Below are positions 1-13,766 of a stretch of 13,766 bases of DNA, piece by piece. Each line of letters begins with the position of its first letter. Positions within the stretch are counted from its first letter, which is position 1. Both the position numbers and the translations under genes were made by a program. This stretch comes from a virus. The notes under the pieces are model-generated. The model was not told where the DNA came from. It did not search any database and worked only from the letters and a program-made list of their open reading frames with translations. The DNA is taken from UHGV virus genome UHGV-0072288, one strand, 5' to 3'.

Positions 1-42
1 TTTAGTACAGTACCCGTACTGTTTTCACGCTGTCAACAAAAA

Positions 43-61
43 ACGCGCCCGAAGGTGCGTT
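43..61 (-). terminator. Possible intrinsic terminator downstream of int (minus-strand transcript)
   Basis: Imperfect GC-rich hairpin ACGCGCC-CGAA-GGTGCGT at 43-60. An A6 run at 38-43 on the + strand gives a U-run after the stem on the minus-strand RNA. About 85 nt past the int stop. Stem has one mismatch on the minus-strand RNA. Confidence 0.3.
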
Positions 62-144
62 AATAATGCCTATCAAATAAGGCTCTCATTGATAAATCAA
101 TATGTTATGAGCGCCTTATTAACCCTAATACACCCTAAAATGCC

Positions 145-1138
145 CTAGTCGGTGGACATTATGTGGACACTCCCACGCATAGGGTTAAATCGTATGGCAT
201 CAGTCAGATAATCTGGGGCGAAGTGAGCATATGTCATTGTTTGCTCGATTGTTGTATGACCCAAAATACGCTGTAGCGTGATGATATTCCCGCCGTTGAT
301 CATGAAATGTGTTGCGAAGGTATGGCGTAAAACATGCAGTGCCTGACCTTTCGGCAAGTCTGGCTTAATCTTACGAAGAACATCGCGAACTCGCTCATAG
401 TTGGTATCGAACAATTTCCCCGATTTGCGTGTAAGGATGTAGTCCGCGATTTCCTTCGATATCGGAACAGTACGAGCTGGGCCGGTTTTGGTCTTAACAA
501 AGGTCACACGGTTACTTATCACGTTTTCAGCTTTAAGATTACTGGCTTCACCCCCATCGTGCTCCTGTATTCAGGCAAAGAACGACAACTCTGCGATCAT
601 CCCCTGTAAGGGCATTCAGCAAATGGTGGATCTCTTCTTCGGACAGAAATGACATTTCTGTGTTTTCCAGACGTAACTTCTTCACGGCGCGAAACGGGTT
701 TTCGTGATGAAATTCTTCCATATCTATCAGCAAACTGAACATGCTGGACATGGAACAGAAATCCCTGTTTACCGTGCCAGCAGATACTCCACTATGAAGT
801 CGTTCTGCACGATATTTCATCAGAAAGTTGCGGGTAAGCTCGTACACTCTGGGTTCCGCCATTTCTCGGTTGATTATTTCCAAACGCTTTTTATATGAGT
901 CACCATAGTTGTGATTCTTTCCATGGTAGCTCCACCATAAAGAAATTAACTCGGATACAAGCCTCCTGTCTGCGGGTTTATCCTGCCATTCTTTATCGTG
1001 AAAGTTTGTCAGTACATACCGCTCGTATGCCTGTGCTTCCGCCTTTCTGTCAAATTTGCGTCGAATCCTTCTTCCTGAGGTTCCGCGCGGTCTAACGTCC
1101 ACTTCAAAACGACCATCATCAAGCTTCTTAATCGACAT
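145..1138 (-). pseudogene. int: Tyrosine recombinase/integrase (P2 Int-like), reading frame broken by a +1 frameshift in a C5 run (551-555)
   Basis: Two adjacent minus-strand ORFs (548-1165 and 145-522) in different frames. N-terminal part MSIKKLDDGRFEV...LCLNTGARWG-stop; C-terminal part carries the catalytic tyrosine-recombinase region (HVLRHTFATHFMINGGNIITLQRILGHTTIEQTMTYAHFAPDYL). Removing one C from 551-555 gives a contiguous ~331-aa ORF (...GARWGEASNLKAENVISNRVTF...). Start set at ATG 1138 (GGAGGG 7 nt upstream) rather than the tool's 1165. Confidence 0.75.
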
Positions 1139-1204
1139 AGCGAAGCCCTCCGATGTATGAATCATTATGTAAATTTTGCGCTAACGCATAGAAAAACCAG
1201 ATGT

Positions 1205-1504
1205 TTAGCCAATTTTCCGGGTGGAACGGGATGATGTTATGTTGTCTTGCCCATCAGGGGAGAGAGACGGGGACACCTGCCCCGCAATTGGTGCCGTCTT
1301 ATCTGTCATTAACCAGAGTGTATATTTTTCAAACATATGTACCTCTATAACACTTTCTAAGACTTCTGCACGAGCTGGCTGATGGCCAGTTTCGTACTTT
1401 TTTATTGTTCCAAGAGCTACCCCAGTAAGCTCTGAAAAATCTTTTTGAGTTAACCCTTCAGCTTTCCGGATCTGCCGGAGTTTCTCCGCATAATTTCTTG
1501 ACAT
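1205..1504 (-). CDS. C: Immunity repressor, P2 C-like (99 aa, HTH)
   Basis: 99-aa ORF with helix-turn-helix (LTQKDFSELTGVALGTIKKYETG) and C-terminal KYTLWLMT...APIAGQ pattern resembling P2 C (recalled from memory). Lies upstream of int on the same strand and divergent from a cox-like gene, as in P2. Confidence 0.75.
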   Translation of the reverse strand: MSRNYAEKLRQIRKAEGLTQKDFSELTGVALGTIKKYETGHQPARAEVLESVIEVHMFEKYTLWLMTDKTAPIAGQVSPSLSPDGQDNITSSRSTRKIG

Positions 1505-1612
1505 GGTTCTTGTATCGCAACTATTATTGGTTCTTACAAAAGAACCTTGACAAAAGAACCCTAGAACGACTTAAAGCGCCCTAGGAACCCAAACTAACGA
1601 AGGATACCACAG
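1505..1612. promoter_or_regulatory. Divergent Pc/Pe-type promoter-operator region between C and cox
   Basis: -35-like TTGACA at 1547-1552. Inverted repeat GGTTCTTACAAAAGAACC at 1529-1546. Repeated hexamer AGAACC/GGTTCT at 1505-1510, 1529-1534, 1541-1546, 1555-1560, 1584-1589. SD GAAGGA at 1599-1604, 8 nt before the cox ATG. Confidence 0.5.
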
Positions 1613-1894
1613 ATGAAGGAACCAGCAGAAAAGGCGCTTTCAGAGTTGGTGACCCCTGAGCTTTTTGCCGAATATATAGGCAAAACGCCTGCTGCAATTC
1701 GCAAAATGGCCACGGCTGGAAAACTGCCGGTAATCCGCATGAAAGACCCTCTAAATCCATCAAAAAAAGGTGGGGAAATCTATATCCATCGGGGGGAATG
1801 GGATGCTTATGCCATTCATTTGGCTCAAATTGCCCCGCCTGAATGGCATGACTGGAAGAACCGTTTATTCACGAAAGATAAAAGTGCTCGTTAG
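1613..1894 (+). CDS. cox: Cox-like small DNA-binding protein (excision/lysogeny-lytic switch)
   Basis: 93-aa ORF divergent from the repressor gene with a good SD. Position and size match P2 Cox / 186 Apl. Sequence similarity not verified. Confidence 0.55.
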   Translation: MKEPAEKALSELVTPELFAEYIGKTPAAIRKMATAGKLPVIRMKDPLNPSKKGGEIYIHRGEWDAYAIHLAQIAPPEWHDWKNRLFTKDKSAR

Positions 1895-1920
1895 TAAACT
1901 AAATATTATTGGGGATTATC

Positions 1921-2256
1921 ATGAAGACTAAATATGCCACGCTGATTCGTAGTCTGTTGCAAAACTATCACGCTCAGGCAAAAACCATTGATAAAGAAAC
2001 ATTCTCTGTACATAGCGATGGCTTGCAGTTAATGGAATTAAACATTCAGCTTGCAAAATGCCTTGAGGGTATAACCTCCACTGCTCGCTTTAATAATGAT
2101 AGTGATGATTTTGAAGAACTGCACAAAATCACGCTTATGGTATTTGGCGGAAATATACCAACTGAAAATAACATTTCCGGTCTTATGTCGCTGGCTACCA
2201 CAGCGTTAAAAAGTAATAACTCGCATCTTAAATCTGTTGCAGCTTCCCAACGTTAA
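1921..2256 (+). CDS. Hypothetical protein (AT-rich early-region cargo)
   Basis: ATG at 1921 preceded by GGGGA (1911-1915); the tool's 1909 start is TTG. 111 aa. Lower GC than flanking phage genes. No recognisable motif. Confidence 0.5.
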   Translation: MKTKYATLIRSLLQNYHAQAKTIDKETFSVHSDGLQLMELNIQLAKCLEGITSTARFNNDSDDFEELHKITLMVFGGNIPTENNISGLMSLATTALKSNNSHLKSVAASQR

Positions 2257-2265
2257 GGAACCGAT

Positions 2266-2835
2266 ATGAAACATTTAATGATTGACCTTGAAACAATGGA
2301 TAATAAACCGACTTCTGCGATTGCTTCTATCGGTGCTGTATTCTTTGACCCTGAAACTGGCGAAATGGGTGAACAGTTTTATCAACGTGTCAGCCTGGGC
2401 AGCTGTGTAGGCCACGGTCTCACTATGGGGTCAGAAACCGTATTATGGTGGATGCGTCAGGATGCCGAAGCGCGTAGCGAGCTGCTTAATGACGATTGTC
2501 TGGACTTGCCTCTGACGTTAGCTAATCTGGAAGCTTTTATTACTGAGCATTCTGACCCATCTAAAGTACAGGTATGGGGGAATAGTGCAGCGTTCGACAA
2601 TGTTATTTTACGTAATGCATCAGAGAAATGCGGGTTTGCCGATCCACTTTGGTACTACTGGAATGACCGTGATGTAAGAACGGTTGTTGAACTGTCAAAA
2701 ACACTTGGGCTGAATGTTCGTAATATTATTAAGTTTGATGGTGTTAAACATCACGCTTTATATGATGCCATTCATCAGGCTAAAGTTGTTTCTTATGTCT
2801 GGATGTATCTTGTAAAAATAGCCAGTGTGAAATAA
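2266..2835 (+). CDS. DEDDh-family 3'-5' exonuclease (DnaQ/epsilon-like)
   Basis: 189-aa ORF with Exo I motif MIDLETM (D-x-E), Exo II-like WGNSAAFDNVIL and Exo III HHALYDAIHQA (H-x4-D). SD AAGGA 6 nt upstream of ATG. Confidence 0.8.
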   Translation: MKHLMIDLETMDNKPTSAIASIGAVFFDPETGEMGEQFYQRVSLGSCVGHGLTMGSETVLWWMRQDAEARSELLNDDCLDLPLTLANLEAFITEHSDPSKVQVWGNSAAFDNVILRNASEKCGFADPLWYYWNDRDVRTVVELSKTLGLNVRNIIKFDGVKHHALYDAIHQAKVVSYVWMYLVKIASVK

Positions 2836-2837
2836 CG

Positions 2838-3056
2838 ATGCTTACAGTGACCTCTCATGCAAGTGAAAGTGTCATTCACAAGGCATTTTCAGTGCTGACA
2901 GAATATTACAACGGCAAAAAGGTATATCAGGTTATTAAGCCAAAACATTATTTCTCTGTTCATGTTTCTTATCGCTGGCGATTACTGAGTAAGGATAAGG
3001 GCAGAAGCTGGGAACTAATGACACATGAGCGATATAACAAGCAGTACAGAATATAG
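2838..3056 (+). CDS. Hypothetical small protein (72 aa)
   Basis: ATG 2 nt after the exonuclease stop, co-directional, ends just before the primase-helicase gene. No recognisable motif. Confidence 0.4.
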   Translation: MLTVTSHASESVIHKAFSVLTEYYNGKKVYQVIKPKHYFSVHVSYRWRLLSKDKGRSWELMTHERYNKQYRI

Positions 3057-3095
3057 TTTTTGCCTTTTACCCATTATTTCACATCTGGATTATTT

Positions 3096-5753
3096 ATGAA
3101 CGAAACGATACAACAGGACGTTGTGCGCCGTCTTGTTCGGGACTTTGAATTTAAAGAGCGGGATAAGTATTTGCAGCAGGGCGTTTGCCCTGCCTGTCGT
3201 AAGCGCGAATTATTTACCAGCATAGAAAAGCCCTGGATTCTGAAATGTGGCCGTGAAAATAACTGCGCACATCAGATTGTCGTGAAAGAGCTGTATCCGG
3301 ATATCTTTGAAGACTGGTCAAAACGTTACCAGACCACAGAAGATAACCCCCATGCAGTAGCTGAGGCGTATCTGCGCGAGGCCAGAGGGCTGGAGACTGA
3401 GCCATTAAAAGGCTGTTTTACCCAGGGTGCATTCGTGAAAGATGGCATGGGGTCGGCAACGGTCAGATTTTCGCTGTCATGCGGTGCAACATGGGAGCGC
3501 ATCATTGACCAGCCGCAGCGCTTCGGTAAGCAGAAAGCCAACATCAGGGGAAGCTATGTCGGTCACTGGTGGGTTCCTCCCTTTATCAACCTGCAGGAAG
3601 TGAACGAAATCTGGATCACTGAGGGAATCTTCAACGCGCTGAGTCTGTGCCAGGTAGGGTTACCTGCAGTTGCCACACTGAGCAGTAACAACTATCCGCT
3701 GGCCGCACTGGATACGCTGGCCAAAGAACTGGGTGAAAAACCACGTCCACGTCTTGTATGGGCGTTTGACGGCGATAAAGCCGGCACAAAGCACACACTG
3801 GCGTTCGCTGCCCGTAGTGATGCTGCAGGATGGAAAACTCGTGCCGCGCAGCCGGTGAAATCATCGGCATCGCTGGACTGGAATGACCTGTTGTTACGTA
3901 ACCGGTTCAGTAAGTCGGACATTAAAAATTATCGCTACTATGGCGATCTCCTTCTGGCAAAAAGCCCGACTGAGAAAGCGCTGCTCATGCATCAGCATAA
4001 CGAGTGGCACTCGTTCTACTTTGAGCATAACTCCCGCATGTACTGGTTTGAGCTGGATCTGGACAGGTATATGCGAGCCTATGAGCGCATCACCAATACC
4101 GGTACCGAAGTGGTGATGGAGTGGGAGGCCAAAGAACGGGCGGTTAAAGAGTCAGGCGGCGTGACCGAAATAGCTAACTGCTGGCTGACGCCGCTTTACT
4201 TTCAGCGGTCTGAACCTACGGACGAGTCCTGGTATTACGTGAAAGTCAGTATGCCTAACCGGCCAGCCGTGAAAGATACTTTCACGGCTAATCAGCTCAC
4301 CAGCTCCGCCGAGTTCAAAAAGCGTCTGCTGCACATCGCCAAAGGGGCGGTGTACACAGGCAGCACCAAACAGCTGGATAAGTTCATCCAGATGCGCCTC
4401 CCTGAAATCAAAGAGGTAAAGACGCAGAATTTCATCGGCTATAACAAGGATTATGCCGCCTGGTTGTTTAACCGCGTGGCCGTTTGCGATGGCCGGCTGT
4501 ATGAGATGAACGACGAGGATTACTTCGAAATCAACAGTGCCAGCGTTAAGAGCCTGAGCCTCACGCCGGCGCTGGATCTGAATCCGAAGCTGAACGAGTT
4601 TACTACGGGTTGGGTAGACGATATCTGGACGGCATTTGGTGAAAAAGGGTATGTGGCGCTGGCGTTCTGGCTGGGGTCGCTGTTTGCCGAACAAATCCGC
4701 GAGCGTGACAAGTCATTTCCGTTTCTGGAAATCGTGGGCGAGCCGGGGACAGGTAAATCCACGCTGATAGAATTTCTCTGGAAGCTCGCCGGCCGTGAGG
4801 AATACGAAGGGTTTGACCCATCTAAATCTACCGCCGCCGCGCGTGGCCGTAACTTCGCCCAGGTCGGTAATCTGCCGGTTGTGCTGATTGAGGGCGACCG
4901 TACTACCGATAACGCCAAGCAACGCGCTTTTGACTGGGACGAGCTGAAATCACTGTATAACGGTCGTGCCTCCCGCGCCGTGGGTATCAAATCGAACAAT
5001 AACGAGACGTATGAGCCGCCGTTCAGGGGAAGTATTGTGATAGCGCAAAATGCCGACACAGACGGCAGCAAGGCGTTTCTGGAGCGTATCATCCACATCT
5101 ATACCGACAAGCGCGGCCAGTCCATTCAGACGCGCCACGCTGCAGAACGACTTGAACAACTCCCCGTTAGCCAGGTATCCGGATTCACATTACTGGCCAC
5201 CATGCGCGAAAAAGAAATCATGCAGACGTTCGGCAGGGGGTACGAGCGAGCTAGGAATGAGCTGGAGTCTAATAGCAGTATTCGCCATATCCGTATTGCA
5301 AAGAATCACGCGCAGCTTGTGGGCTTGCTGGAGGCGCTTGCACTTGTTGTACCGGTGCCGGTTGAACGTATAGAAAAAACGCGTGAAGCCATCACCGCGC
5401 TGGCCGTTGAACGTTGTCAGGCACTTAAAAAGGATCATCCTCTGGTGCAGGAGTTCTGGGAGCTGTTTGATTACTTGGATGAACTGGCACCTTATGGCAT
5501 CAATCATTCATCAGATGAAAATGAAATCGCGGTTAATTTCAATCACATGGAAGAGGTCGCCGCAGCACACCGGCAGCGTATTCCGTTCACGTTAACGGAA
5601 ATTAAAAAGCTGCTTAAAAACGGCAATGAGCGCCGGTTTATCAGACAAAGCACCACGCGCAGCGCGGTAAGTGAGCGCCATAATCGTGGTAAAGGGGATA
5701 TGCAACGGATGCCGGAAACATTCCGCTGCTGGATATTTGGCCGGGAAAAGTAA
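3096..5753 (+). CDS. Replication primase-helicase (zinc-ribbon + TOPRIM primase + SF3/D5-type helicase), P4 alpha-like architecture
   Basis: N-terminal Cys4 zinc ribbon (CPAC...CGRENNC). TOPRIM motifs (WITEGIFNAL; VWAFDGDKAG). C-terminal P-loop NTPase with Walker A GEPGTGKST, Walker B PVVLIEGD and motif C IVIAQNAD. The tool starts at TTG 3060; ATG 3096 (MNETIQQ) preferred. Confidence 0.85.
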   Translation: MNETIQQDVVRRLVRDFEFKERDKYLQQGVCPACRKRELFTSIEKPWILKCGRENNCAHQIVVKELYPDIFEDWSKRYQTTEDNPHAVAEAYLREARGLETEPLKGCFTQGAFVKDGMGSATVRFSLSCGATWERIIDQPQRFGKQKANIRGSYVGHWWVPPFINLQEVNEIWITEGIFNALSLCQVGLPAVATLSSNNYPLAALDTLAKELGEKPRPRLVWAFDGDKAGTKHTLAFAARSDAAGWKTRAAQPVKSSASLDWNDLLLRNRFSKSDIKNYRYYGDLLLAKSPTEKALLMHQHNEWHSFYFEHNSRMYWFELDLDRYMRAYERITNTGTEVVMEWEAKERAVKESGGVTEIANCWLTPLYFQRSEPTDESWYYVKVSMPNRPAVKDTFTANQLTSSAEFKKRLLHIAKGAVYTGSTKQLDKFIQMRLPEIKEVKTQNFIGYNKDYAAWLFNRVAVCDGRLYEMNDEDYFEINSASVKSLSLTPALDLNPKLNEFTTGWVDDIWTAFGEKGYVALAFWLGSLFAEQIRERDKSFPFLEIVGEPGTGKSTLIEFLWKLAGREEYEGFDPSKSTAAARGRNFAQVGNLPVVLIEGDRTTDNAKQRAFDWDELKSLYNGRASRAVGIKSNNNETYEPPFRGSIVIAQNADTDGSKAFLERIIHIYTDKRGQSIQTRHAAERLEQLPVSQVSGFTLLATMREKEIMQTFGRGYERARNELESNSSIRHIRIAKNHAQLVGLLEALALVVPVPVERIEKTREAITALAVERCQALKKDHPLVQEFWELFDYLDELAPYGINHSSDENEIAVNFNHMEEVAAAHRQRIPFTLTEIKKLLKNGNERRFIRQSTTRSAVSERHNRGKGDMQRMPETFRCWIFGREK

Positions 5754-5766
5754 CGGTTCACTAGTG

Positions 5767-5831
5767 CCTAACTTTATTGTTAGGGGAAGGAGCGAACATT
5801 GAAGCAATAGGGGCGTTATCTTTATTGCTTC
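5767..5831. terminator. Two hairpins between convergent primase-helicase and glycosyltransferase genes (candidate terminators)
   Basis: Hairpin CCTAAC-TTTATT-GTTAGG at 5767-5784. Hairpin GAAGCAATA-(13 nt)-TATTGCTTC at 5801-5831 followed by a T-rich stretch on the + strand. The second overlaps the stop of the minus-strand gene. Confidence 0.4.
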
Positions 5832-6541
5832 ATTCTTATTTTAAAGTTCTTTAATTTACCGTACAGAGTATCCCGCAGGGAAAACGAAGGAACCCAATCA
5901 AAACCAGTACGCCAGGGGCGTGGACTGCCATGAAAGCAAACAACCGCCACATTATCAGGGACTTTCCCTGTCGCAGCCTCAGAGGCTAAATTTGCATTGA
6001 AGCCAATCATCGAGGGGGTGGCGATGTCACATTTATAACTAACAATTGAGCCAGGAATGATATCCTGCCATAGGGCTGGTTTTATGATGCTACCGAGAAA
6101 TCCCTGATCACCCCATTTGTCTTCAGTCTGACAATTGCGCATAATTTTCTCAGGATCAATAATGAATTGTTCCCAAATCGTCTTTTTAATCGACGCCGGA
6201 ATCATCATTATTGATGAGTTTACTCTTGAGGCATGGTTAAACTCCCGAAGCATTGTAAATTTCTTCGCACCTTCGAAAATATGAATATCTCCCGTGACCA
6301 CAACATCTACGTCAAAATAGAGTAAATCTTGGTCTCCAAGGACTGGGTGATTAGGATTAAATAGTTCAATTTTAGACCACCATCCCGGCCAGTTATAAAG
6401 CAAAGGGGTTGTGTTAACTCCAGGAATATTATCTGCATCGGTTAAACATATAGATGGAATATCTTTGAACTGACGATGAAGCCATTGGGCGTGTTTAGGG
6501 GTAAACTCTTTACTACATTTAAGAACTGAGACTATTAACAT
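5822..6541 (-). CDS. GT-A fold nucleotide-sugar glycosyltransferase-like protein (GT8-like motifs), hotspot cargo
   Basis: 239-aa ORF with strong SD (GGGAGG 6 nt before ATG at 6541). DxD motif after a hydrophobic strand (LLYFDVDVVV). C-terminal FHGSPRPW resembling the GT8 H-x-G-x-x-K/R-P-W motif. Noticeably AT-rich. Confidence 0.6.
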   Translation of the reverse strand: MLIVSVLKCSKEFTPKHAQWLHRQFKDIPSICLTDADNIPGVNTTPLLYNWPGWWSKIELFNPNHPVLGDQDLLYFDVDVVVTGDIHIFEGAKKFTMLREFNHASRVNSSIMMIPASIKKTIWEQFIIDPEKIMRNCQTEDKWGDQGFLGSIIKPALWQDIIPGSIVSYKCDIATPSMIGFNANLASEAATGKVPDNVAVVCFHGSPRPWRTGFDWVPSFSLRDTLYGKLKNFKIRMKQ

Positions 6542-6600
6542 AAGATGCCTCCCAAAATTTGGAAAGATAATATCATGTTTAGGAGGGGGGGACTATTAAT
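6542..6600 (-). promoter_or_regulatory. Putative promoter/5' region of the glycosyltransferase gene, containing a homopolymer tract
   Basis: SD GGGAGG (complement of 6548-6553). -10-like TATTAT (complement of 6568-6573). G7 run on + strand at 6585-6591 (C7 in the gene's sense) where the spacer/-35 would lie. No convincing -35. Confidence 0.3.
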
Positions 6601-6655
6601 CACTTGGTCATTCATCGACGTTGATAGATGGGAATCTGTTACATCTCAGAAAATA

Positions 6656-6680
6656 AAAGCACCGGTAGCGGTGCTTTTTT
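6656..6680. terminator. Bidirectional rho-independent terminator
   Basis: Stem GCACCG/CGGTGC (6659-6664 / 6669-6674), extendable with A-T pairs, loop GTAG. T6 at 6675-6680 on the + strand and AAAATAAAA at 6650-6658 (U-run for the minus-strand transcript). Immediately follows the stop of the Ogr-like gene. Confidence 0.65.
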
Positions 6681-7010
6681 CTATGCGGCAGCAGTGCCGT
6701 CCTGACTCAGAAACTTTAACATCAGCTGCTTTTGCTGGATATCAAGGCTGTTACAGATAGTGGCGATCAACGCATCGCTGGATTTGGCGCTGGGGCTGAT
6801 GGTATGTGAGAATGTCATATTCATCACAAAAGTGTGACCACATTCAACATCGGTACACGCGCAATATAAATCCGACAGTTCCTTGTGTTTTCGGGCTGTT
6901 TTTTTGATAACAGCCCTTGCCTCACATACCGGACAGTAAACCTTCATTACCCGCATATCCATCGCTCCGGAAGTTGGAAAACGATGATATTTTAGCCTTT
7001 TTGCGAACAT
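6681..7010 (-). CDS. ogr: Ogr/Delta-family zinc-finger protein (late-gene transcription activator family)
   Basis: CPVC-x22-CACTDVEC-GHTFV pattern matching P2 Ogr (CPLC...CQNVNCSATFI, from memory). Start ATG at 7010 overlaps the portal stop (TAATG) with SD GGAAGGTG upstream. Alternative internal starts at 6956/6947 would give an Ogr-sized ~88-91 aa protein. Confidence 0.65.
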   Translation of the reverse strand: MFAKRLKYHRFPTSGAMDMRVMKVYCPVCEARAVIKKTARKHKELSDLYCACTDVECGHTFVMNMTFSHTISPSAKSSDALIATICNSLDIQQKQLMLKFLSQDGTAAA

Positions 7011-8028
7011 TAATCACCTTCCAGCTCACTGTCTTTCAGGAAATTAAGGTACAGGTGGGGCGGTACATCACTTTCCTGTTCCACTGCGGCGGTAAACATG
7101 CGCTGAATGGGCAAAATTTCTGCTTTGCGGTAGGTTTTGGACGCTTTCTCAACATCTCCCATTACTGCGCCGTTCGTCGGGATAATCCCCGCCAGTCCTG
7201 CCGGGAATCGATGCGCGGTCAGTACGTCCTGGGCGCTGATGCTCTTGATGTTCTGAAACTCATCTTTGGCGCTGATATCCCCAATCGGGATAAATTTGAT
7301 GCCGTCCGGATCGCCTTTGGGGATGTTCACAAACATGGTGCTGAAGTTCCCGATCCCCTTTGACTGCTCCAGCTTCTGAATAATTTCTTCTTCCACTTCA
7401 TCAGTCATATTTGGGTCGTTACAGTAGATCATGCCACCTGTGTGTCCGCCGTTATGGTAGTAACGCCGACGAAAAATTGTTGCCTCACCGTTAAGCAGGG
7501 CAGAATGGATACCGCTGATATAATCCGGCAGACCATAAATCGCCTGTTGCGGATCGTACTGCCTGAGAAAAATAATATCTTCAGGCGGATAAATCATCGG
7601 TTCACCCTGCTGCAGTACCACAAACTCCCCGGTCTTACGCTGGCGGGTGAAGTGGAAGCCGGGGGTTACGGTCCCCCCCCCCCCCCCCAGCCGTTACGCA
7701 CTTTCAGAATGGCCACATCACCGAAGGTCAGCCAGTCGAACACGGCTGCACCAAGCTGTTCATGCGTCAGTCCGCCGTCTTTATAGTTTGCCGTCACCAT
7801 ATTGCGACGGGCATACAGCACACCGCCGTGCTGCGCGTTCAGGTTCACCAGTTGCGCCAGCGCCAGCCGGTCAATCGGGAGCGTCCAGTGTTCCGCTTCA
7901 TTGTCATACCAGACGTCTGTGTAGTTTGTGCCGGTCGTCAGAATGGGTTCCGGTTTACCCAGGGTAATAAGGCTCATATGGCGCGGCTTGCTGGCGGTGC
8001 GGCGTTCCCTGTATTTCCGTTTTTTCAT
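7010..8028 (-). pseudogene. Q: Portal protein (P2 gpQ-like), frame interrupted by a 16-nt homopolymer
   Basis: Two minus-strand ORFs (7666-8028 and 7010-7621) together give ~340 aa, matching the ~344-aa P2 portal. The upstream frame reads ...LKVRNGWGGGGGP-stop through the G16 tract. The downstream frame is open back through the tract (...GGGGGTVTPGFHFTRQRKTGEFVVLQQGEPM...). ATGA overlap with the terminase stop at 8025-8028. Confidence 0.8.
7673..7688. repeat. Homopolymeric tract C16 (+ strand) = G16 in the portal coding sense
   Basis: Direct count: 16 consecutive C at 7673-7688. Tract lengths of 14 or 17 would join the two portal reading frames; the observed 16 does not. Confidence 0.95.
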
Positions 8029-9158
8029 GCTGCTTTCCCTAAGTTACCCCAGCGTGATTTTCGCTGGTTTTCAAAGTTTAATGGCTCGTTGTCAATGGCA
8101 TGGGCGATAGCCCAGAAACTGTCTGCGTGTCCTGTTTCTGCTGTGCGATCGGCGACGAAAGTCATTGCGTTGCCGCTGGCCGTGGACGTACGGCGGATGG
8201 TCATAAAGCTGGCGGCGATTTCGGTCTTCTCCTTATCCCATTCCACGCGGCCGTCTTCGATAACGTCGATCATCTTCATCACCAGACGATTTTTGGTCTC
8301 GACGCCGTAGCGGATCGCCACTGCCTGACGCATGGCAAAGTGCTGAACGTCTTCAAAGACACCGCTACCCAGTCCAGTGATATCAATGCCGATGTAGGTC
8401 ATGTTGTACTGGCCAAACAGCTTCTTAATCTGTGCCGCCTGCCACTTCCAGTTCATCCCCTGCCAGTGGAATACACGCAGTACCCGAAATTTTTCGCCGG
8501 CCACTATCGGCGGCGCGATGATCACGAAGGTGGAGGTGTCTCCGCTGCGAGCCGGGTCATAACCCGCCCACACTTCACGGTTGCCGAACGGCCGGGGCAG
8601 GTTTTCGTCATGATCCTCCCAGAAATACCAGGTTGCACCAATCTGGCGGCTTTTCAGGATGTTCCTGATTTGCTGATGAAGATTAGCGCGAAGGTGTTTC
8701 TGGTAACCGAAAAGGTGCTCCAGCGCGAACCGGTCAAAATCTTCCTGTGTCAGTCCGCTGATGTCGTTCTTTTTGTACTTGCCACGTTTCCGGGGCTTTT
8801 CGTCGCCACCGGACTGACGCGCCGGCGCATCATTTTCACTGTGTTTAATTTCTGCCAGCTTTTCCTGATGCTTATTGTGCTGTGCACGTAGTTTCACCAG
8901 GTGAGAAACGAGACTGTCCAGCTCCCGCAGCTCCAGCTCCGATTTCCCTTCACGTAATGTCAGTGACTGAATGCGACGGTTTAATGCATCTTCGGTGGAT
9001 TCATGACTGAGTAATTCCGCCCAGCAATATTTCTCCGCCCAGTAATAGACAATGCGTCTGTTAGGCAGATTAAGTTCGCTGGCAATTTCCTGCGGGGTAT
9101 AGCGTTTTAAATAAAGCGCCCGCGCAACGCCTTTTAATTCTTCTGAATATTTAGCCAT
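8025..9158 (-). CDS. P: Terminase large subunit (P2 gpP-like), apparently shortened: N-terminal HTH plus C-terminal nuclease, ATPase core largely missing
   Basis: N-terminal HTH (YTPQEIASELNLPNRRIVYYW). Deviant Walker-A-like KSRQIGAT followed almost immediately by nuclease-type motifs (AGYDPARSGDTSTFVI; YIGIDITGLGSG; HADSFWAIAHA). 378-382 aa versus ~590 aa recalled for P2 gpP. Start uncertain (GTG 9173 or ATG 9158, neither with a good SD). Confidence 0.65.
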   Translation of the reverse strand: MAKYSEELKGVARALYLKRYTPQEIASELNLPNRRIVYYWAEKYCWAELLSHESTEDALNRRIQSLTLREGKSELELRELDSLVSHLVKLRAQHNKHQEKLAEIKHSENDAPARQSGGDEKPRKRGKYKKNDISGLTQEDFDRFALEHLFGYQKHLRANLHQQIRNILKSRQIGATWYFWEDHDENLPRPFGNREVWAGYDPARSGDTSTFVIIAPPIVAGEKFRVLRVFHWQGMNWKWQAAQIKKLFGQYNMTYIGIDITGLGSGVFEDVQHFAMRQAVAIRYGVETKNRLVMKMIDVIEDGRVEWDKEKTEIAASFMTIRRTSTASGNAMTFVADRTAETGHADSFWAIAHAIDNEPLNFENQRKSRWGNLGKAA

Positions 9159-9301
9159 GCACACATTATGCACGGGCGTTTGTATATTAAATCCCGCTTT
9201 ATTTCTGATGTGTTCGGCTAATAGCCTATATCCGAAATGAAGTGAATGCGGCGGTTAATTTTATTGGCGATACTGAAAACCGCAGCATGAACGGAGGCAA
9301 T
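9159..9301. promoter_or_regulatory. Divergent late-promoter region between terminase (P) and scaffold (O) genes
   Basis: Position equals the P2 divergent P/O late-promoter interval. Strong SD GGAGG at 9294-9298 before the O ATG. No TGT-N12-ACA Ogr-type dyad found by eye. Confidence 0.35.
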
Positions 9302-10141
9302 ATGTCAGGTTCACAACTGGCAACAAACTGGATTTGTATCGCCACTGCGGGTGAAACGGTTGATAAGCGATTTATTGAAGAACAATGGTTGCTTGATGCC
9401 GCTGAATTATATGACCCCTCTTTGTATACCGCGCTGTTATGGCCGGAACATTCCCGTAATTTCGGGAATATGGGGGAGGTGCTGGAAGTAAAAGCCGAGC
9501 GGGATGATGAAGGTATTCTTCGTTTATATGCCCGCCTCTGTCCGGCGATTTCATTGCTACAGGCAAATGCAGACGGTCAGCTTTTATTTTTATCACCGGA
9601 GTTTACACCGGACGGCAATTTCAGAAATACCGGGAAAACCTATCTTGAGGGACTGGCCATTACTGACAGTCCGGCCGGGGTAAGCACCACACGGTTACGT
9701 TTCAGCCGCACCAGGGGAAAACGCATCGGACCATACAAGCCGCTGGCGTTTGATGAAGTCAGGGAATTTAAAAAGGAAAAGGGAATGTCAAAGACAGCGA
9801 AAAAGGGCTGGCGCCATTTTTTCAGTATCGAAGAACCGGAGCAGACCCCGGAGCAGGAACCTTCACAGTCTGATGCCTTACAGGCGCTGGCTGAAGCGCT
9901 GGATGCCATTGATAAGCGCGTATCTGCTATTGAAACCCGTCTGGGTGAGGCGGAAGAAGCGGTATCTGATGTGCAGGACGATGTGGACACCGTGAAGGAA
10001 GTAGTGGACACCGAAGATTTTGCGCGTCTGGTGGGGAACCTGCCGGAGCTGGTGAAAAACTTCAGCAAGCTGAATAACAAAGTTACTCAACTGCCGGACA
10101 AGAAATTCAGCAAGGGCAAAAAAGGCTTCAATTTCCTGTAA
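9302..10141 (+). CDS. O: Capsid scaffolding protein (P2 gpO-like)
   Basis: 279 aa from ATG 9302 with GGAGG SD; the tool's 9242 start is GTG. N-terminal region resembles gpO and the C-terminal half is acidic/coiled-coil (EEAVSDVQDDVDTVKEVVDTEDF). Sits between terminase and major capsid genes. Confidence 0.75.
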   Translation: MSGSQLATNWICIATAGETVDKRFIEEQWLLDAAELYDPSLYTALLWPEHSRNFGNMGEVLEVKAERDDEGILRLYARLCPAISLLQANADGQLLFLSPEFTPDGNFRNTGKTYLEGLAITDSPAGVSTTRLRFSRTRGKRIGPYKPLAFDEVREFKKEKGMSKTAKKGWRHFFSIEEPEQTPEQEPSQSDALQALAEALDAIDKRVSAIETRLGEAEEAVSDVQDDVDTVKEVVDTEDFARLVGNLPELVKNFSKLNNKVTQLPDKKFSKGKKGFNFL

Positions 10142-10175
10142 GGGATAACACTACTTTTCTTTAAGGAAAAAGAAT

Positions 10176-11204
10176 ATGCAATTAAATGCGAAAGCCCGTG
10201 AGTTTCTGCTTCAGTATCACACCGGGCTGCGTGAATCCTACGGGGCGACCGACAGCGAACGCTGGTTTGCACTCACCGACCCCAAAGAAACCCAGCTGCG
10301 CAATGCGCTGATGGAGCAGTCTGATTTCCTGAATCTGATCACCGTTGCCGATGTCGATCAGCTGCAGGGGCAGGTGGTTCCGGTTGGCAGCTCTGGCCTG
10401 TATACCGGGCGTGTACTGGATGGCCGCTTCCGTAAGAAAGTGGGCGTGAGTGGTAATGATTACAGTCTGGTCGAGACCGACTCATGCGCCGCACTCACCT
10501 GGCAGTTGCTTTCTGTCTGGGCGAACGCCGGCGATGAAAACGAGTTTTTCCAGCGTGTTCAGGAGTTCACCAATCAGGCGTTTGCGCTGGATATGCTGCG
10601 TATCGGCTTTAACGGTACCAAAGTGGCCGAGACCACGAACGCGGAAACCAACCCGAACGGCGAGGATGTGAACAAGGGCTGGCATCAGATCGTCAAAGAG
10701 TGGAAGGACGGCCAGCAGATCATCACTGATGCGGTGGTGCTTGACGGTGACGGGAAAGGCGATTACGTGTCGCTGGATGCAATGGCCTCCGACCTTATCA
10801 ACGCCAAAATCCCGGCACAGTACCGTAATGATCCACGCCTGGTGGTTCTTGTCGGCGCTGATCTGGTCGCGGCGGAGTCGTTCCGTCTGTATCAGAAAGC
10901 AGACAAACCCACGGAGAAGATCGCCGCGCAACTGCTGTCTGACAGCATCGCCGGCCGCACGGCTTACGTACCGCCGTTTATGCCAGGCAAACGCATGATT
11001 GTTACGACACTGCCAAACCTGCACATCTACACCCAGCGCGGCACGCGTCAGCGTAAAGCGGAGTTTGTGGAAGACCGTAAACAGTACGAAAACAAATACC
11101 TGCGTAACGAAGGTTATGCGGTTGAGTATCCGGAACTGTACGCCGCGTTTGATGAAAGTGCGGTAGCTATCGGGGCACCTGTCGCGCCTCCGGCAGGCGA
11201 GTAA
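10176..11204 (+). CDS. N: Major capsid protein (P2 gpN-like)
   Basis: 342-aa ORF directly downstream of the scaffold gene with SD AAGGA. Size and position match P2 gpN (~357 aa). Confidence 0.75.
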   Translation: MQLNAKAREFLLQYHTGLRESYGATDSERWFALTDPKETQLRNALMEQSDFLNLITVADVDQLQGQVVPVGSSGLYTGRVLDGRFRKKVGVSGNDYSLVETDSCAALTWQLLSVWANAGDENEFFQRVQEFTNQAFALDMLRIGFNGTKVAETTNAETNPNGEDVNKGWHQIVKEWKDGQQIITDAVVLDGDGKGDYVSLDAMASDLINAKIPAQYRNDPRLVVLVGADLVAAESFRLYQKADKPTEKIAAQLLSDSIAGRTAYVPPFMPGKRMIVTTLPNLHIYTQRGTRQRKAEFVEDRKQYENKYLRNEGYAVEYPELYAAFDESAVAIGAPVAPPAGE

Positions 11205-11214
11205 GGGGGATTTA

Positions 11215-12252
11215 ATGCAACTGTCACCGGCACAGCGCCACAGCGCACGAATTGAAGCGGAGCGGTTACTGCGACAGCAGCAGTCTCTGGACACGGAAAC
11301 CAGCCTGCATATTCAGATTGTCGCGCTGGAGAAAGATGTCGCCGCAGCTGCAGCGATTGAAAGCCGCGCTGAGCGAATGGAATTTAAGCGTGATGTGCTG
11401 TTACCGCGCTGGATGCCAACCGCGCAAGCCGGGACGGTTATCCAGACAGAGCGCATTAACGGTCGCGTGTATGAGCTGGCCACCAGTGAGGATGTAGTGA
11501 TCGCTTCCGGTACGGCCTGCGCATTACTGCCGGTAAAAGCCACCGGCACCGGGGGCGCATATAACCTTGCGCCGGGATATTACCGCATTCTGCCGGTTGC
11601 CGTTGACGGTATCAGCCACGTGGCCAGCGAAGAAAACTGGCTGACCGTACCGGGCGCGGATGAAGAAAGTGATGACGAGCTGCGCGAACGCTGCCGCAAT
11701 CAGTTCAATCTGGTGGGGAATTACCACACTGACGCCGTTTACCGGTCGATGATTGCCGGCGTTGCAGGGCTGAGTATTGACCGGATTTTCTTTGAACATG
11801 AAGCGCCGAGGGGACCCGGTACCGCCAACGCGTATCTGTTGCTGGACAGCGGGGTGGCTTCTTCGCCGTTCGTGGATGCCGTCAATGACTATATCAACAC
11901 GCAGGGGCATCACGGCCACGGTGATGATATGCAGTGCTATCCCATGCCGGAAACGCTTCATGATCTGTCCGTCACAGTTTATGTCAAAAATCTGGCCAAT
12001 TTCAGCGATGAGGACAGGAAAACCCTGAAGGACGGGGTGGAGAACATGATCCGCTGTGCTTTTCGTGAGAATGCTGATTATGACGTCAGGAAGACGTGGC
12101 CATATTCGCGTTTTTCCTTTTCTCAGCTGGGGCGGGAGATCCACAGGACATTTGCTCAGACGGAATCACTGTCTTTTTCACTGGGTGATATCACCAGCGA
12201 ACTGAGTGTTCCACGCCTGAAATCGCTTGCGGTTGTTGTTGAAAATGAGTGA
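11215..12252 (+). CDS. Chimeric ORF: terminase small/endonuclease subunit (gpM-like) N-terminus (~73 aa) fused to a baseplate protein J-like body
   Basis: N-terminus MQLSPAQRH...KRDVLLPRWMP matches the gpM start (MTSPAQRH...KRELLPFWLPW, from memory). The remainder (...ESDDELRERCRNQF...GVASSPFVDAVNDYI...) resembles P2 gpJ (...ESDTDYRLRIQQAF...GVASEDLLAVVRNAL...). Implies an in-frame deletion of the M-to-J interval. Confidence 0.5.
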   Translation: MQLSPAQRHSARIEAERLLRQQQSLDTETSLHIQIVALEKDVAAAAAIESRAERMEFKRDVLLPRWMPTAQAGTVIQTERINGRVYELATSEDVVIASGTACALLPVKATGTGGAYNLAPGYYRILPVAVDGISHVASEENWLTVPGADEESDDELRERCRNQFNLVGNYHTDAVYRSMIAGVAGLSIDRIFFEHEAPRGPGTANAYLLLDSGVASSPFVDAVNDYINTQGHHGHGDDMQCYPMPETLHDLSVTVYVKNLANFSDEDRKTLKDGVENMIRCAFRENADYDVRKTWPYSRFSFSQLGREIHRTFAQTESLSFSLGDITSELSVPRLKSLAVVVENE

Positions 12253-12583
12253 GTTCCTGAAAAAGCTGGCCGGGATGGTGCTTCCTTCCTGGATGAACAA
12301 AGGCGAGCCGGCGAAGCTGCTGAAAACGGCGCGGCGGTTCTGGACTGAGGTTTACGGCTGGGTTACGTGGCCAGTGAATCAGTTCGATCCGCTGACGTGT
12401 ACGCCGGCATTACTGAACCTGCTGGCGTATGACCGCGATATACCGACCTGCTTTTGCGCTGGTTTACCGGTTATGTTGAACGTTCACAACCAGCTGAAAA
12501 CGGTTATCAGCGTCTGTTCATTCGTGAGCTGGCCGGTGTTTTTGAAAGGATGTGGCCATGTTCATTTCAGCACCCGACATTAA
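12245..12583 (+). CDS. Tail protein I-like (gpI / YmfQ family), C-terminal part doubtful
   Basis: ATG 12245 overlaps the upstream stop (ATGAGTGA). N-terminal ~65 aa (...VNQFDPLTCTPALLNLLAYDRDI) resembles gpI (...WNPDTCPANLLPWLAWAFSVDRWD). After ~12440 the frame is Cys-rich and atypical, while frame 2 opens at 12433 and stays open to the window end. Confidence 0.45.
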   Translation: MSEFLKKLAGMVLPSWMNKGEPAKLLKTARRFWTEVYGWVTWPVNQFDPLTCTPALLNLLAYDRDIPTCFCAGLPVMLNVHNQLKTVISVCSFVSWPVFLKGCGHVHFSTRH

Positions 12584-13766
12584 GGGATGTAGCCGGCTGG
12601 CTGACGGAAAACAGCGGGATCGGTGTCAGTGTACCCGATGTGTCTTACAGCGATACTCCGATCCCCCATTTCACCCATAACGGTACCGGCTATCAGTTGC
12701 TGAACAACCTGGGCAGGGCATTCAGTATCCAGGATTACATCTGGTACCAGTTGCCTGATGGTTCGCTTTACGTCGGCGGTGCTGAAAAGTCACTGTTTAC
12801 CGGTCGTCCGGTCGAAGTGCCGGCAGAGTTCAGCCAGGGGGCTGCTGGCGGGAATACCATAACGTTACCGGTGATCCAGACGATACGACCCGGCGTTGAG
12901 CTTAACGGTGAACGGGTCACCAAAGTCCATCTTACAAATGACACGATGACTATCACCTGGACACCCCGGAACCGCGTCACAGGCAGCCCCCTTCAGAAAA
13001 CACCGACACAACGACAGATTGAGAGCCATTATCCGGAACTGGCTTCCGGGCTTCATCTGCCAAAGATGGCCAGAGTGGTGGCACATACTGAACCCGTGAA
13101 AAGTGGTAATTTTGCCGATCCATTCCGGCCACGTTATGCCGTGGACGTTCAGCTGCTTGACGCAGACGGAAACCCGGACAATCAGACGCCTGTTTACTCA
13201 GCGGTGCCGCTGCCGGTGCCAATGGCCGGGAATGATTCAGGTATGTTTCAGTTTCCGCCAGAAGGGACGCTGGTTGAGGTTGCATTCACGGGAGGCAGAC
13301 CGGATAAACCCTTTATCAGGCAGACGCTGCCGGATGGTACCAGCCTGCCGGACGTTAAACCCGGTGAGCAATTGCAGCAGCAGAGGGAAGAAGTATCCCA
13401 GAGGGTGACTCAGGCTGGAGACTGGGTAAGGCAGACCGATCAAACCATCAGTGAAACATCGATGGCGCGAACCGTAAAAGCCGATACGGAGCAGCGCGAA
13501 CTGGTCAGCCGTGAAACCACGGTGAAAGCCACGGACAAAACCACGGTACTGGGAACCACCACACTGCTGGCCGGAGCCATCCAGCAGGTAAGCGCCGGTG
13601 ATTATAGCCAGGCGGTGAAAGGTAACAGGCTGGCCAGTATTGAAGGAAACGAAGAAACGGACATAGCAGGACAGCAGTCCACTAAAGTGGGCGGTGCTAT
13701 AGCCGTGGAGGTTGGCGAAAGCCTGACAGAGAAGATTGCCGCACTGCGTAAATCAGTGGCCGCCGG
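12550..13766 (+). CDS. Tail/baseplate spike-like protein with gpV/gp5/VgrG-type OB-fold motif and beta-helix-like repeats; partial at the window end, start uncertain
   Basis: Frame 2 is open from 12433 to the window end. Contains ...MFQFPPEGTLVEVAFTGGRPDKPFI..., matching the gp5/gpV/VgrG OB-fold signature, followed by Thr/Val/Gly-rich repeats (TVKADTEQRELVSRETTVKATDKTTVLGTT...). Candidate starts: ATG 12550 (SD abuts the ATG), GTG 12640, ATG 13066. Confidence 0.35.
   Translation, partial: MWPCSFQHPTLRDVAGWLTENSGIGVSVPDVSYSDTPIPHFTHNGTGYQLLNNLGRAFSIQDYIWYQLPDGSLYVGGAEKSLFTGRPVEVPAEFSQGAAGGNTITLPVIQTIRPGVELNGERVTKVHLTNDTMTITWTPRNRVTGSPLQKTPTQRQIESHYPELASGLHLPKMARVVAHTEPVKSGNFADPFRPRYAVDVQLLDADGNPDNQTPVYSAVPLPVPMAGNDSGMFQFPPEGTLVEVAFTGGRPDKPFIRQTLPDGTSLPDVKPGEQLQQQREEVSQRVTQAGDWVRQTDQTISETSMARTVKADTEQRELVSRETTVKATDKTTVLGTTTLLAGAIQQVSAGDYSQAVKGNRLASIEGNEETDIAGQQSTKVGGAIAVEVGESLTEKIAALRKSVAA

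Follow-up and report, generated by a model that had tools for sequence, protein, structure and literature searches.

When a prophage keeps its immunity region and accessory genes while its head and tail genes are broken, has it been retained for what is left, or has ordinary decay been caught at an early stage? The question is raised by UHGV virus genome UHGV-0072288, a stretch of 13,766 nucleotides (the window), which an earlier note, made from the letters alone, had read as a domesticated prophage kept for its immunity or cargo functions. The window corresponds in full to a single metaSPAdes contig of a gut metagenome (ENA ERZ1741973 NODE_991), reverse-complemented and with a k-mer coverage of 4.4. 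We conclude with good confidence that it is a recently degraded P2-like prophage of Escherichia coli (Peduoviridae, Evevirus-type), on a low-coverage contig and in an ordinary state of decay. It represents the left 13.7 kb of a ~16.3-kb remnant of a ~29-kb element. As one more defective P2-like prophage it is unremarkable and of limited weight, and some of the damage that it seems to show is an artifact of low coverage. At the same time, intact and variously degraded copies that are 99.9% identical can be set side by side, which gives a clean view of how prophage decay begins.

Three internal deletions

As a reference we used the intact prophage of E. coli NT1F10 (NZ_CP075462.1, positions 1,181,185 to 1,210,283), whose local coordinates are given below as locus L007. 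The two elements share the insertion site and the attachment (att) core, and the window aligns with NT1F10 in four collinear blocks of 99.7 to 100% identity. Compared with the intact copies it has ~10 single-nucleotide polymorphisms (SNPs) in 13.7 kb, and its retained segments are ~99.9% identical to theirs. The ~10 substitutions, of which at least three are nonsynonymous (Int K88I, primase A187V, and scaffold S56N), are too few for a ratio of nonsynonymous to synonymous rates (dN/dS). What otherwise sets the window apart from NT1F10 is an additional C in the integrase gene, a garbled patch in the portal gene, and the absence of 12,819 bp, of a total of ~29,100 bp, in three blocks with junction microhomologies of 2 to 5 bp. 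The deletions appear to be young, because the retained sequence is so close to that of the intact prophages.

The first deletion lies in the large terminase (TerL) gene (8025 to 9158, minus strand), from which 648 bp are gone in frame, with the junction at 8621 to 8623 on the microhomology AGA. It removes 216 residues (approximately 179 to 394) and with them the Terminase_6N ATPase domain, while Terminase_5 and the Terminase_6C nuclease domain are kept. The second deletion, of 8,216 bp, joins residues 1 to 71 of the small terminase gpM in frame to residues ~121 to 394 of the baseplate protein J (junction 11426 to 11427, AA); the resulting M'-'J open reading frame (ORF) of 345 amino acids (11215 to 12252, plus strand) matches Pfam Phage_term_smal and Baseplate_J. 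The missing block held the genes for head completion, tail completion, sheath, tube, holin, endolysin, spanin, chaperone, and tape measure. The third deletion (3,955 bp; junction 12437 to 12441, GATAT) leads from a gpI-like baseplate gene into the last baseplate-like gene and takes the tail fiber gene and that of the fiber's assembly protein. The gpI-like gene is left truncated and out of frame across the junction (12245 to 12583, plus strand; residues 4 to 66 only of phrog_1228), and the 3' part of the last baseplate-like gene (12442 to 13766, plus strand; 567 amino acids when intact, phrog_2258 on the longer copy) runs off the contig. Lesions in the terminase, the M-J interval, and the tail region, described in the earlier note as an internal deletion and a gene fusion, are thus confirmed, with their exact junctions mapped against NT1F10.

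The same junctions were found in the output of other assemblers. A MEGAHIT contig of ERR525732 (PRJEB6456, the Bäckhed mother-infant cohort) is 100% identical over 8177 to 13647, a range that includes all three junctions, and the shortened terminase ORF, whose junction lies inside this match, is also present in a scaffold of ERZ28565595. Scaffold BAEC15-1_SAMEA2579949 is collinear with the window from end to end and goes on for another 903 bp, still collinear with NT1F10. In the output of other assemblers the three deletions are identical base for base, and they are a property of the reads, not of the assembler. An assembler misjoin is excluded, because microhomologies of 2 to 5 bp cannot cause misjoins in a de Bruijn graph. 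It has been worth asking whether the contig is a chimera or a collapsed mixture of strains, behind which the true prophage would be intact and inducible and the lesions assembly artifacts. Although the low k-mer coverage and the artifactual look of the portal patch agree with such an origin, we consider it very improbable: the microhomologies are much shorter than any k-mer used in assembly, identical junctions came from metaSPAdes, from MEGAHIT run with a different k, and from a further scaffolder, and finished isolate genomes contain comparable deletions with junctions of this kind.

That two deletions are in frame could also suggest an interfering remnant, in which the ATPase-less TerL and the M'-'J fusion would serve as dominant-negative decoys against the packaging of superinfecting relatives, in a defense that goes beyond repressor immunity. 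The N-terminal Terminase_5 region, the nuclease domain, and gpM residues 1 to 71 are all kept. However, two in-frame events have a probability of 1/9 by chance, the ORFs are unique to one lineage, deletions elsewhere that use this gpM breakpoint disrupt the reading frame (loci L034 and L035), and expression would need late promoters that require Ogr and the replication of an infecting phage. We regard a role in defense as extremely improbable.

Integrase and portal lesions

Two homopolymer frameshifts had been proposed for the window, one in the integrase gene and one in the portal gene; the first is real, and the second is part of a garbled patch at a break in coverage. The tyrosine integrase gene (145 to 1138, minus strand) is a pseudogene with five C's at 551 to 555, compared with four C's in six relatives. 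The additional C splits the Int_N and Phage_integrase domains and leaves a 196-amino-acid N-terminal ORF and a C-terminal catalytic fragment; the exact 196-amino-acid fragment is confined to contigs from this metagenome lineage. The five C's are also present in two contigs from MEGAHIT and one from JGI (100% identical over 1 to 7648 or 1 to 5834). Since the run is reproduced by every other assembly of the lineage that covers the site, the additional C is in the reads and is not a product of the assembler, and the integrase lesion stands as it had been described.

The portal gene (7010 to 8028, minus strand; fragments 7010 to 7621 and 7666 to 8028, with Pfam Phage_portal on the C-terminal fragment) is interrupted only by the garbled stretch at 7649 to 7688, outside of which it is identical to the gene of the intact copies. 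This stretch carries 15 substitutions and a 1-nucleotide deletion relative to the relatives, is ~60% identical to the normal sequence and C biased, and ends in a run of 16 C's at 7673 to 7688, of which 0.01 would be expected by chance. It lies in 8.6 kb that are otherwise 99.9% identical to the relatives (~10 differences). Both MEGAHIT contigs that reach it end at 7648, a third assembly, a scaffold, has 40 N's over the patch, and only metaSPAdes bridges it. The 120-amino-acid portal fragment at 7666 to 8028 was found in exactly one public contig, the NODE_991 contig that forms the window. Most likely, the patch is an assembly or sequencing artifact, a noisy bridge over a coverage break, and the portal gene is probably intact in the true sequence.

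Two other origins of the patch were rejected. Simple homopolymer slippage was ruled out, as the 16 C's are the 3' part of a 40-bp garbled patch; a natural divergent allele, from recombination or a chimera, was discarded, as the codon-preserving degenerate pattern was absent from IMG/VR. The sole internal match of the patch is an 11-mer inverted repeat 250 nucleotides away, at approximately the chance level. A fallback in the earlier note, by which the homopolymer lesions are assembly errors and the deletions are not, holds for the deletions, probably holds for the portal gene, and fails for the integrase gene. Homopolymer "frameshifts" in metagenome contigs of ~4x coverage are not to be taken as biology.

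Expected consequences and retained functions

The element is integrated at its att site with essential genes inactivated, as is a defective prophage. No particles are expected, because the TerL ATPase domain and the tail and lysis genes are gone, and no excision is expected, because the integrase is split. Three illegitimate-recombination deletions with short microhomology have stripped the prophage of its packaging, tail, and lysis genes, and the additional C has broken the integrase; excision, DNA packaging, tail assembly, and lysis of the host should all be beyond the remnant. Its description as grounded and deficient in morphogenesis is supported by the loss of the TerL ATPase domain and of the head-completion, tail, and lysis genes and by the frameshift in int.

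The repressor, cox, replication, and cargo genes had been described as intact, and this was upheld: except for A187V in the primase, their proteins are identical to those of NT1F10. The immunity repressor of the P2 C type (1205 to 1504, minus strand; 99 amino acids) is intact, matches Pfam HTH_3 (1e-9), and is identical in protein sequence to the repressors of intact prophages. Cox (1613 to 1894, plus strand; Pfam Phage_Cox, 8e-25) is likewise intact and identical to that of NT1F10, as are the 111-amino-acid early protein of unknown function (1921 to 2256, plus strand; phrog_7058), the Rv2179c-like 3'-5' exonuclease of the DEDDh type (2266 to 2835, plus strand; Pfam, 1e-67), a 72-amino-acid protein with a ParE-like toxin domain (2838 to 3056, plus strand; Pfam ParE_like, 8e-17; phrog_1525), and a 239-amino-acid accessory protein that is described below. 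The replication protein of the primase/helicase type (3096 to 5753, plus strand; 885 amino acids, Toprim plus DUF5906 in Pfam, phrog_1139 with 1,239 bits) carries the A187V replacement. The Ogr/Delta zinc finger late-gene activator (6681 to 7010, minus strand; Pfam Ogr_Delta, 1e-15) and the gpN-like major capsid protein (10176 to 11204, plus strand; Pfam Phage_cap_P2) are intact and identical to those of NT1F10, and the gpO-like capsid scaffold (9302 to 10141, plus strand; Pfam Phage_GPO_N) carries S56N. Because the C/cox switch, the early operon, Ogr, and the accessory glycosyltransferase gene are unchanged, the remnant is still likely to confer homoimmunity and to express its accessory genes.

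In several contigs the public gene caller gives only a 43-amino-acid product for the repressor at 1205 to 1504, although the full ORF is open and its product is identical to the RefSeq protein. The short call is an artifact of the caller that could mislead an automated reading of the immunity gene.

Insertion site and affiliation

The prophage had been taken to start at 145 and to end with the window, and neither limit was correct. Bases 1 to 144 have a match in all 5,426 complete E. coli genomes. Positions 1 to 39 are E. coli DNA of the pheL/pheA leader side, with a match to all complete E. coli genomes and a flank that is annotated in the relatives, and the prophage begins at the core of the left attachment site (attL), AAAACGCGCCCGAAGG, at 40 to 55. 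This core is the sole 16-bp direct repeat between the two ends of the intact NT1F10 prophage (L007, 18040 to 18055 and 47123 to 47138). At the right-hand side it is the contig that stops; the prophage continues. The att core is part of the raiA/pheL terminator hairpin, which the prophage regenerates at the right attachment site (attR).

The gene organization is that of the Peduoviridae: portal and large terminase genes on one strand face the genes for scaffold, capsid, and small terminase, and a face-to-face C/Cox switch lies beside the tyrosine integrase, together with an Ogr/Delta activator. The P2-type contractile tail and lysis genes are found in NT1F10 (L007, 30578 to 44805) and are deleted here, where only parts of J, of the gpI-like gene, and of the last baseplate-like gene remain. 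Among phage records, Escherichia phage ESSI2_ev239 (Evevirus, Peduoviridae, NC_049392), a complete genome of 29.2 kb, comes closest. It shares with the window the order int, C, cox, exonuclease, primase, ogr, portal, and terL, followed by scaffold, capsid, gpM, and tail genes, but its int/C region has 70 to 78% identity or no match, and its genes between primase and ogr are different. The similarity to ev239 amounts to 84 to 92% over 55% of the window and concerns the remnant only, not whole genomes; the genus criterion of the International Committee on Taxonomy of Viruses is ~70% identity over the full length.

P2 itself has in common with the window the C/Cox switch, Ogr, the Q-P and O-N-M head cluster, and an accessory slot flanked by the replication and portal genes. 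P2 replicates through the rolling-circle initiator gpA, whereas no gpA-type initiator was recognized among the genes of the window, whose replication protein is of the Toprim/DUF5906 type, and the 19-mer of the P2 cos site was not found in the window even when 3 mismatches were allowed. The primase type and the absence of the P2 cos site fit Evevirus, not Peduovirus (P2 sensu stricto). A phage satellite, either P4-like or similar to phage-inducible chromosomal islands (PICI-like), was considered and rejected: the integrase gene is frameshifted, the portal, scaffold, and capsid genes are kept, and the Pfam and PHROGs scans of the window gave no sid/psu-like or other satellite markers. No RNA family was found in the window with Rfam at gathering thresholds, and ARAGORN found no tRNA or transfer-messenger RNA there.

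Intact and decayed relatives

If the truncated architecture had been kept by selection, other strains would be expected to share it, and the earlier note had called for a comparison of the locus across strains. At ≥99% identity the prophage is present in 22 of the 5,426 complete E. coli genomes; 12 of these copies are apparently intact, and the other 10 have decayed along at least seven different routes. The intact copy, ~29 kb long and at the same pheL/raiA site, occurs in NT1F10 and 11 other complete genomes, and draft genomes supplied four more decayed variants. None of the complete genomes covers more than 85% of the window. The comparison showed that the architecture of the window is not shared and that the 10 degraded copies represent at least seven other architectures.

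The decayed copies (PK5, HZ13, YPE10, PSJ-12, BY63, E89, GCA_028598035, GCA_054792755, GCA_031118735, and GCA_900448905) occupy the same site, have the same 99.9% identical backbone, and show deletion microhomologies of 1 to 7 bp. Single breakpoints (L007 26623, 30075, and 43256 to 43260) are common to the window and several of these copies, but no complete junction is. IS1, IS100, or ISKpn26 is present in several of them, and the sets of genes that are lost differ. PK5 and CUPF12 have a deletion from the capsid gene to the last gene, HZ13 carries ISKpn26 and a nonsense mutation in int, and YPE10 has two deletions and a stop codon in the primase gene. In PSJ-12 there are four deletions and an int frameshift different from that of the window. 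BY63 and I3 carry IS1 and have lost the repressor, cox, the primase, and the 239-amino-acid gene altogether, E89 combines IS100 with a 21-kb deletion, and locus L035 lacks cox and C. The ogrK/D' remnant of E. coli K-12 is a cryptic P2 remnant, a defective lysogen that arose from internal deletions, and compared with it the window is far less decayed.

The reading frames that are specific to the window's junctions are confined to its own lineage. Three such ORFs were found in only 2 to 4 ENA metagenome contigs among ~15 billion proteins, and these contigs are mutually identical; the M'-'J ORF occurs in 4 ENA contigs only, and the junction-specific ORFs are absent from NCBI and Logan assemblies.

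These comparisons bear directly on domestication, in which selection would have kept the remnant for superinfection immunity and for its accessory genes (glycosyltransferase and acyltransferase). Several features are of the kind that selection could leave: the immunity, early, and accessory proteins are identical to those of intact copies while the morphogenesis genes are damaged, the acyltransferase gene is kept in seven of seven decayed copies (PK5, HZ13, YPE10, PSJ-12, BY63, I3, and E89), and the accessory slot exchanges a glycosyltransferase for an OLD-like nuclease, as a hot spot of beneficial accessory genes would. The three junction ORFs, however, are known from one metagenome lineage, ~10 SNPs in 13.7 kb leave no time for selection to show, and internal deletions keep the ends of a prophage by construction. 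The retained set is also inconstant, as BY63, I3, and locus L035 have lost immunity genes. With unique junction ORFs, so few SNPs, and relatives that decay differently, domestication for immunity or cargo was not borne out, and we hold it to be unlikely. Instead, the decay is neutral and recent or selected only for the loss of lethal genes, and there is no conserved domesticated architecture. The overall picture is one of ordinary decay that is rapid and follows many paths. That the lysis region is often lost agrees with selection against lethal genes, not with selection for the remnant.

Several points nevertheless weigh against ordinary decay as we describe it. The right end of the prophage, with the acyltransferase gene and attR, lies outside every contig of this lineage. 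The confirming assemblies are mutually 100% identical, both MEGAHIT contigs of the left part stop at 7648, and two or more of them are linked to PRJEB6456; most likely, they are reassemblies of one read set or one strain, which excludes an error of the assembler but not an error in, or heterogeneity of, the read set. We treat it as a coincidence that two deletions out of three kept the reading frame, and there may be a biological lesion at 7649 to 7688 in the portal gene. The predicted immunity and accessory-gene expression, finally, are deduced from intact ORFs alone.

Recurrent breakpoints and a shared motif

The point that seems most worth following is the recurrence of motif-bearing breakpoints across unrelated strains. 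We mapped 20 deletion junctions that are free of insertion sequences (ISs), from 11 degraded copies and with the three of the window included, onto NT1F10. All three junctions of the window have an endpoint that was used again elsewhere: L007 26623 (window 8623) is also the right end of a deletion in PSJ-12, L007 30075 (window 11427) is also the left end of two other deletions, which extend to 43990 and 44443, and L007 43256 to 43260 (window 12437 to 12441) is also the right end of the deletions in PK5 and GCA_054792755. Outside the window, the breakpoints at L007 22256, 38290 to 38304, and 45339 were reused. Altogether, nine pairs of endpoints lie within 5 bp of each other, compared with 0.29 expected and a maximum of 4 in 10,000 simulations. 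The events are independent, because each of the lineages retains segments that others lack.

When the 40 partner sites were aligned on the end of the microhomology, a common pattern appeared, with T at position -1 in 18 of 40 sites, A at 0 in 26, C at +2 in 27, C at +3 in 23, G at -3 in 20, and G at +4 in 19. The motif is the palindrome C-G-G-R-T|A-Y-C-C-G, and a site like it is present at both partners of most junctions; in half of the junctions (10/20), TA lies inside the microhomology. The core A|NC[CT] was found at 19 of 38 junction sites, compared with a background of 2.7%, and it was present at 10 of the 18 sites of the nine junctions that were found after the motif had first been noticed. 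The twentieth junction, that of E89, fits the motif and reuses a known site. The motif was absent from the insertion flanks of IS1, IS100, and ISKpn26 in the relatives. A strand-specific version (A|NCC on the plus strand, as might be left by an enzyme of the lagging strand or of single-stranded DNA) was discarded as an artifact of right-justified microhomology, the counts being palindromic about T|A.

Among known sites of DNA breakage, those of IS targets, integrase/att, XerCD/dif, Rci/sfx, RuvC, Dcm/EcoRII-type enzymes, and relaxase nicking do not fit the position of the break. The literature search on prophage deletion hot spots with microhomology gave nothing relevant.

A resemblance was found to the sites of DNA gyrase. 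The consensus of the E. coli gyrase cleavage motif has the center CGGCGGTAT-GGGG-ATACCGCCG as listed in supplementary table S2 of PMC6379681, and a TA step within GTAC lies at the center of the gyrase G segment (PMC13284261). The motif of the junctions resembles the half-sites GGTAT and ATACC of that listed consensus. When scored against the half-sites GGCGGTAT-N4-ATACCGCC, the junction sites had a mean of 7.74, compared with 7.07 ± 0.20 at random prophage positions (P ~0.001), in a comparison that was post hoc and loose in registration and that used the consensus sequence and not the full position-frequency matrix of PMC6379681. A type II topoisomerase as the origin of the breaks is a lead and not a conclusion.

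With this in mind, we tentatively suggest, as a possibility that is less likely than not to hold, that the decay is not random and that a site-selective enzyme acting on double-stranded DNA cuts the prophage, most plausibly a trapped type II topoisomerase. Trapping could conceivably come about through the prophage's own ParE-like early protein or through exposure to quinolones, and the survivors would be cells whose prophage had lost its lethal late genes. The link between the ParE-like ORF and a topoisomerase is speculation from the known action of ParE toxins. If an identifiable enzyme such as gyrase does make the cuts, deletional decay, long assumed to be random, would gain a sequence-specific component that can be tested.

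Accessory genes and further observations

The accessory gene (moron) between the replication gene and the ogr/portal region (5822 to 6541, minus strand; G+C fraction ~0.41; phrog_1962, 6e-81) encodes 239 amino acids with no match in Pfam and none to a defense system in PADLOC. The family is large, with 602 hits and an invariant D77-x-D79, and is annotated in PHROGs as a glycosyltransferase. An AlphaFold model of the protein has a predicted local distance difference test score (pLDDT) of 96, and with Foldseek it matched retaining glycosyltransferases of family GT8, LgtC and glycogenin, with E values of 6e-8 and weaker and template modeling (TM) scores of 0.5 to 0.6. On the strength of the model, the protein is confidently predicted to be a GT8-like glycosyltransferase with a GT-A fold. 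The position of the gene corresponds to the old/tin slot of P2, and in one relative the slot is filled by an OLD-like ATPase/TOPRIM nuclease (L032, 3827 to 5587).

The ParE-like ORF, between the exonuclease and primase genes, is conserved in intact relatives, and ev239 contains the homologous DNA without an annotation. No antitoxin gene was recognized beside it, and by sequence it had no relative among solved structures. PADLOC gave no defense-system match for the ParE-like ORF, Ogr, or the 111-amino-acid ORF.

Inactivation of int was seen in other decayed copies as well, by the nonsense mutation in HZ13 (L003, 6145 to 7137), by the frameshift in PSJ-12 (L014, 6106 to 7099), and by the insertion of IS100 in E89 (L037, 8106 to 11059) or of IS1 in BY63 (L015, 5106 to 6581) and GCA_031118735 (L034, 7416 to 9066). 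Grounding through the loss of int is recurrent and independent. In I3 (L036, 1 to 9000) the remnant abuts IS1, and the flanking chromosome from ypjD to ssrA lies in the opposite orientation to that of NT1F10, which indicates that an IS1-mediated inversion removed the left half of the prophage.

The acyltransferase gene lies at the right end of the intact prophage, next to attR, and in the lineage of the window it falls beyond the contig. It was kept in all seven decayed copies that were inspected at this end (L002, 19617 to 20804; L003, 25211 to 26314; L013, 17068 to 18171; L014, 17018 to 18205; L015, 15348 to 16535; L036, 17288 to 18391; and L037, 16552 to 17739), and it occurs there in two length variants, of 1,104 and 1,188 nucleotides.

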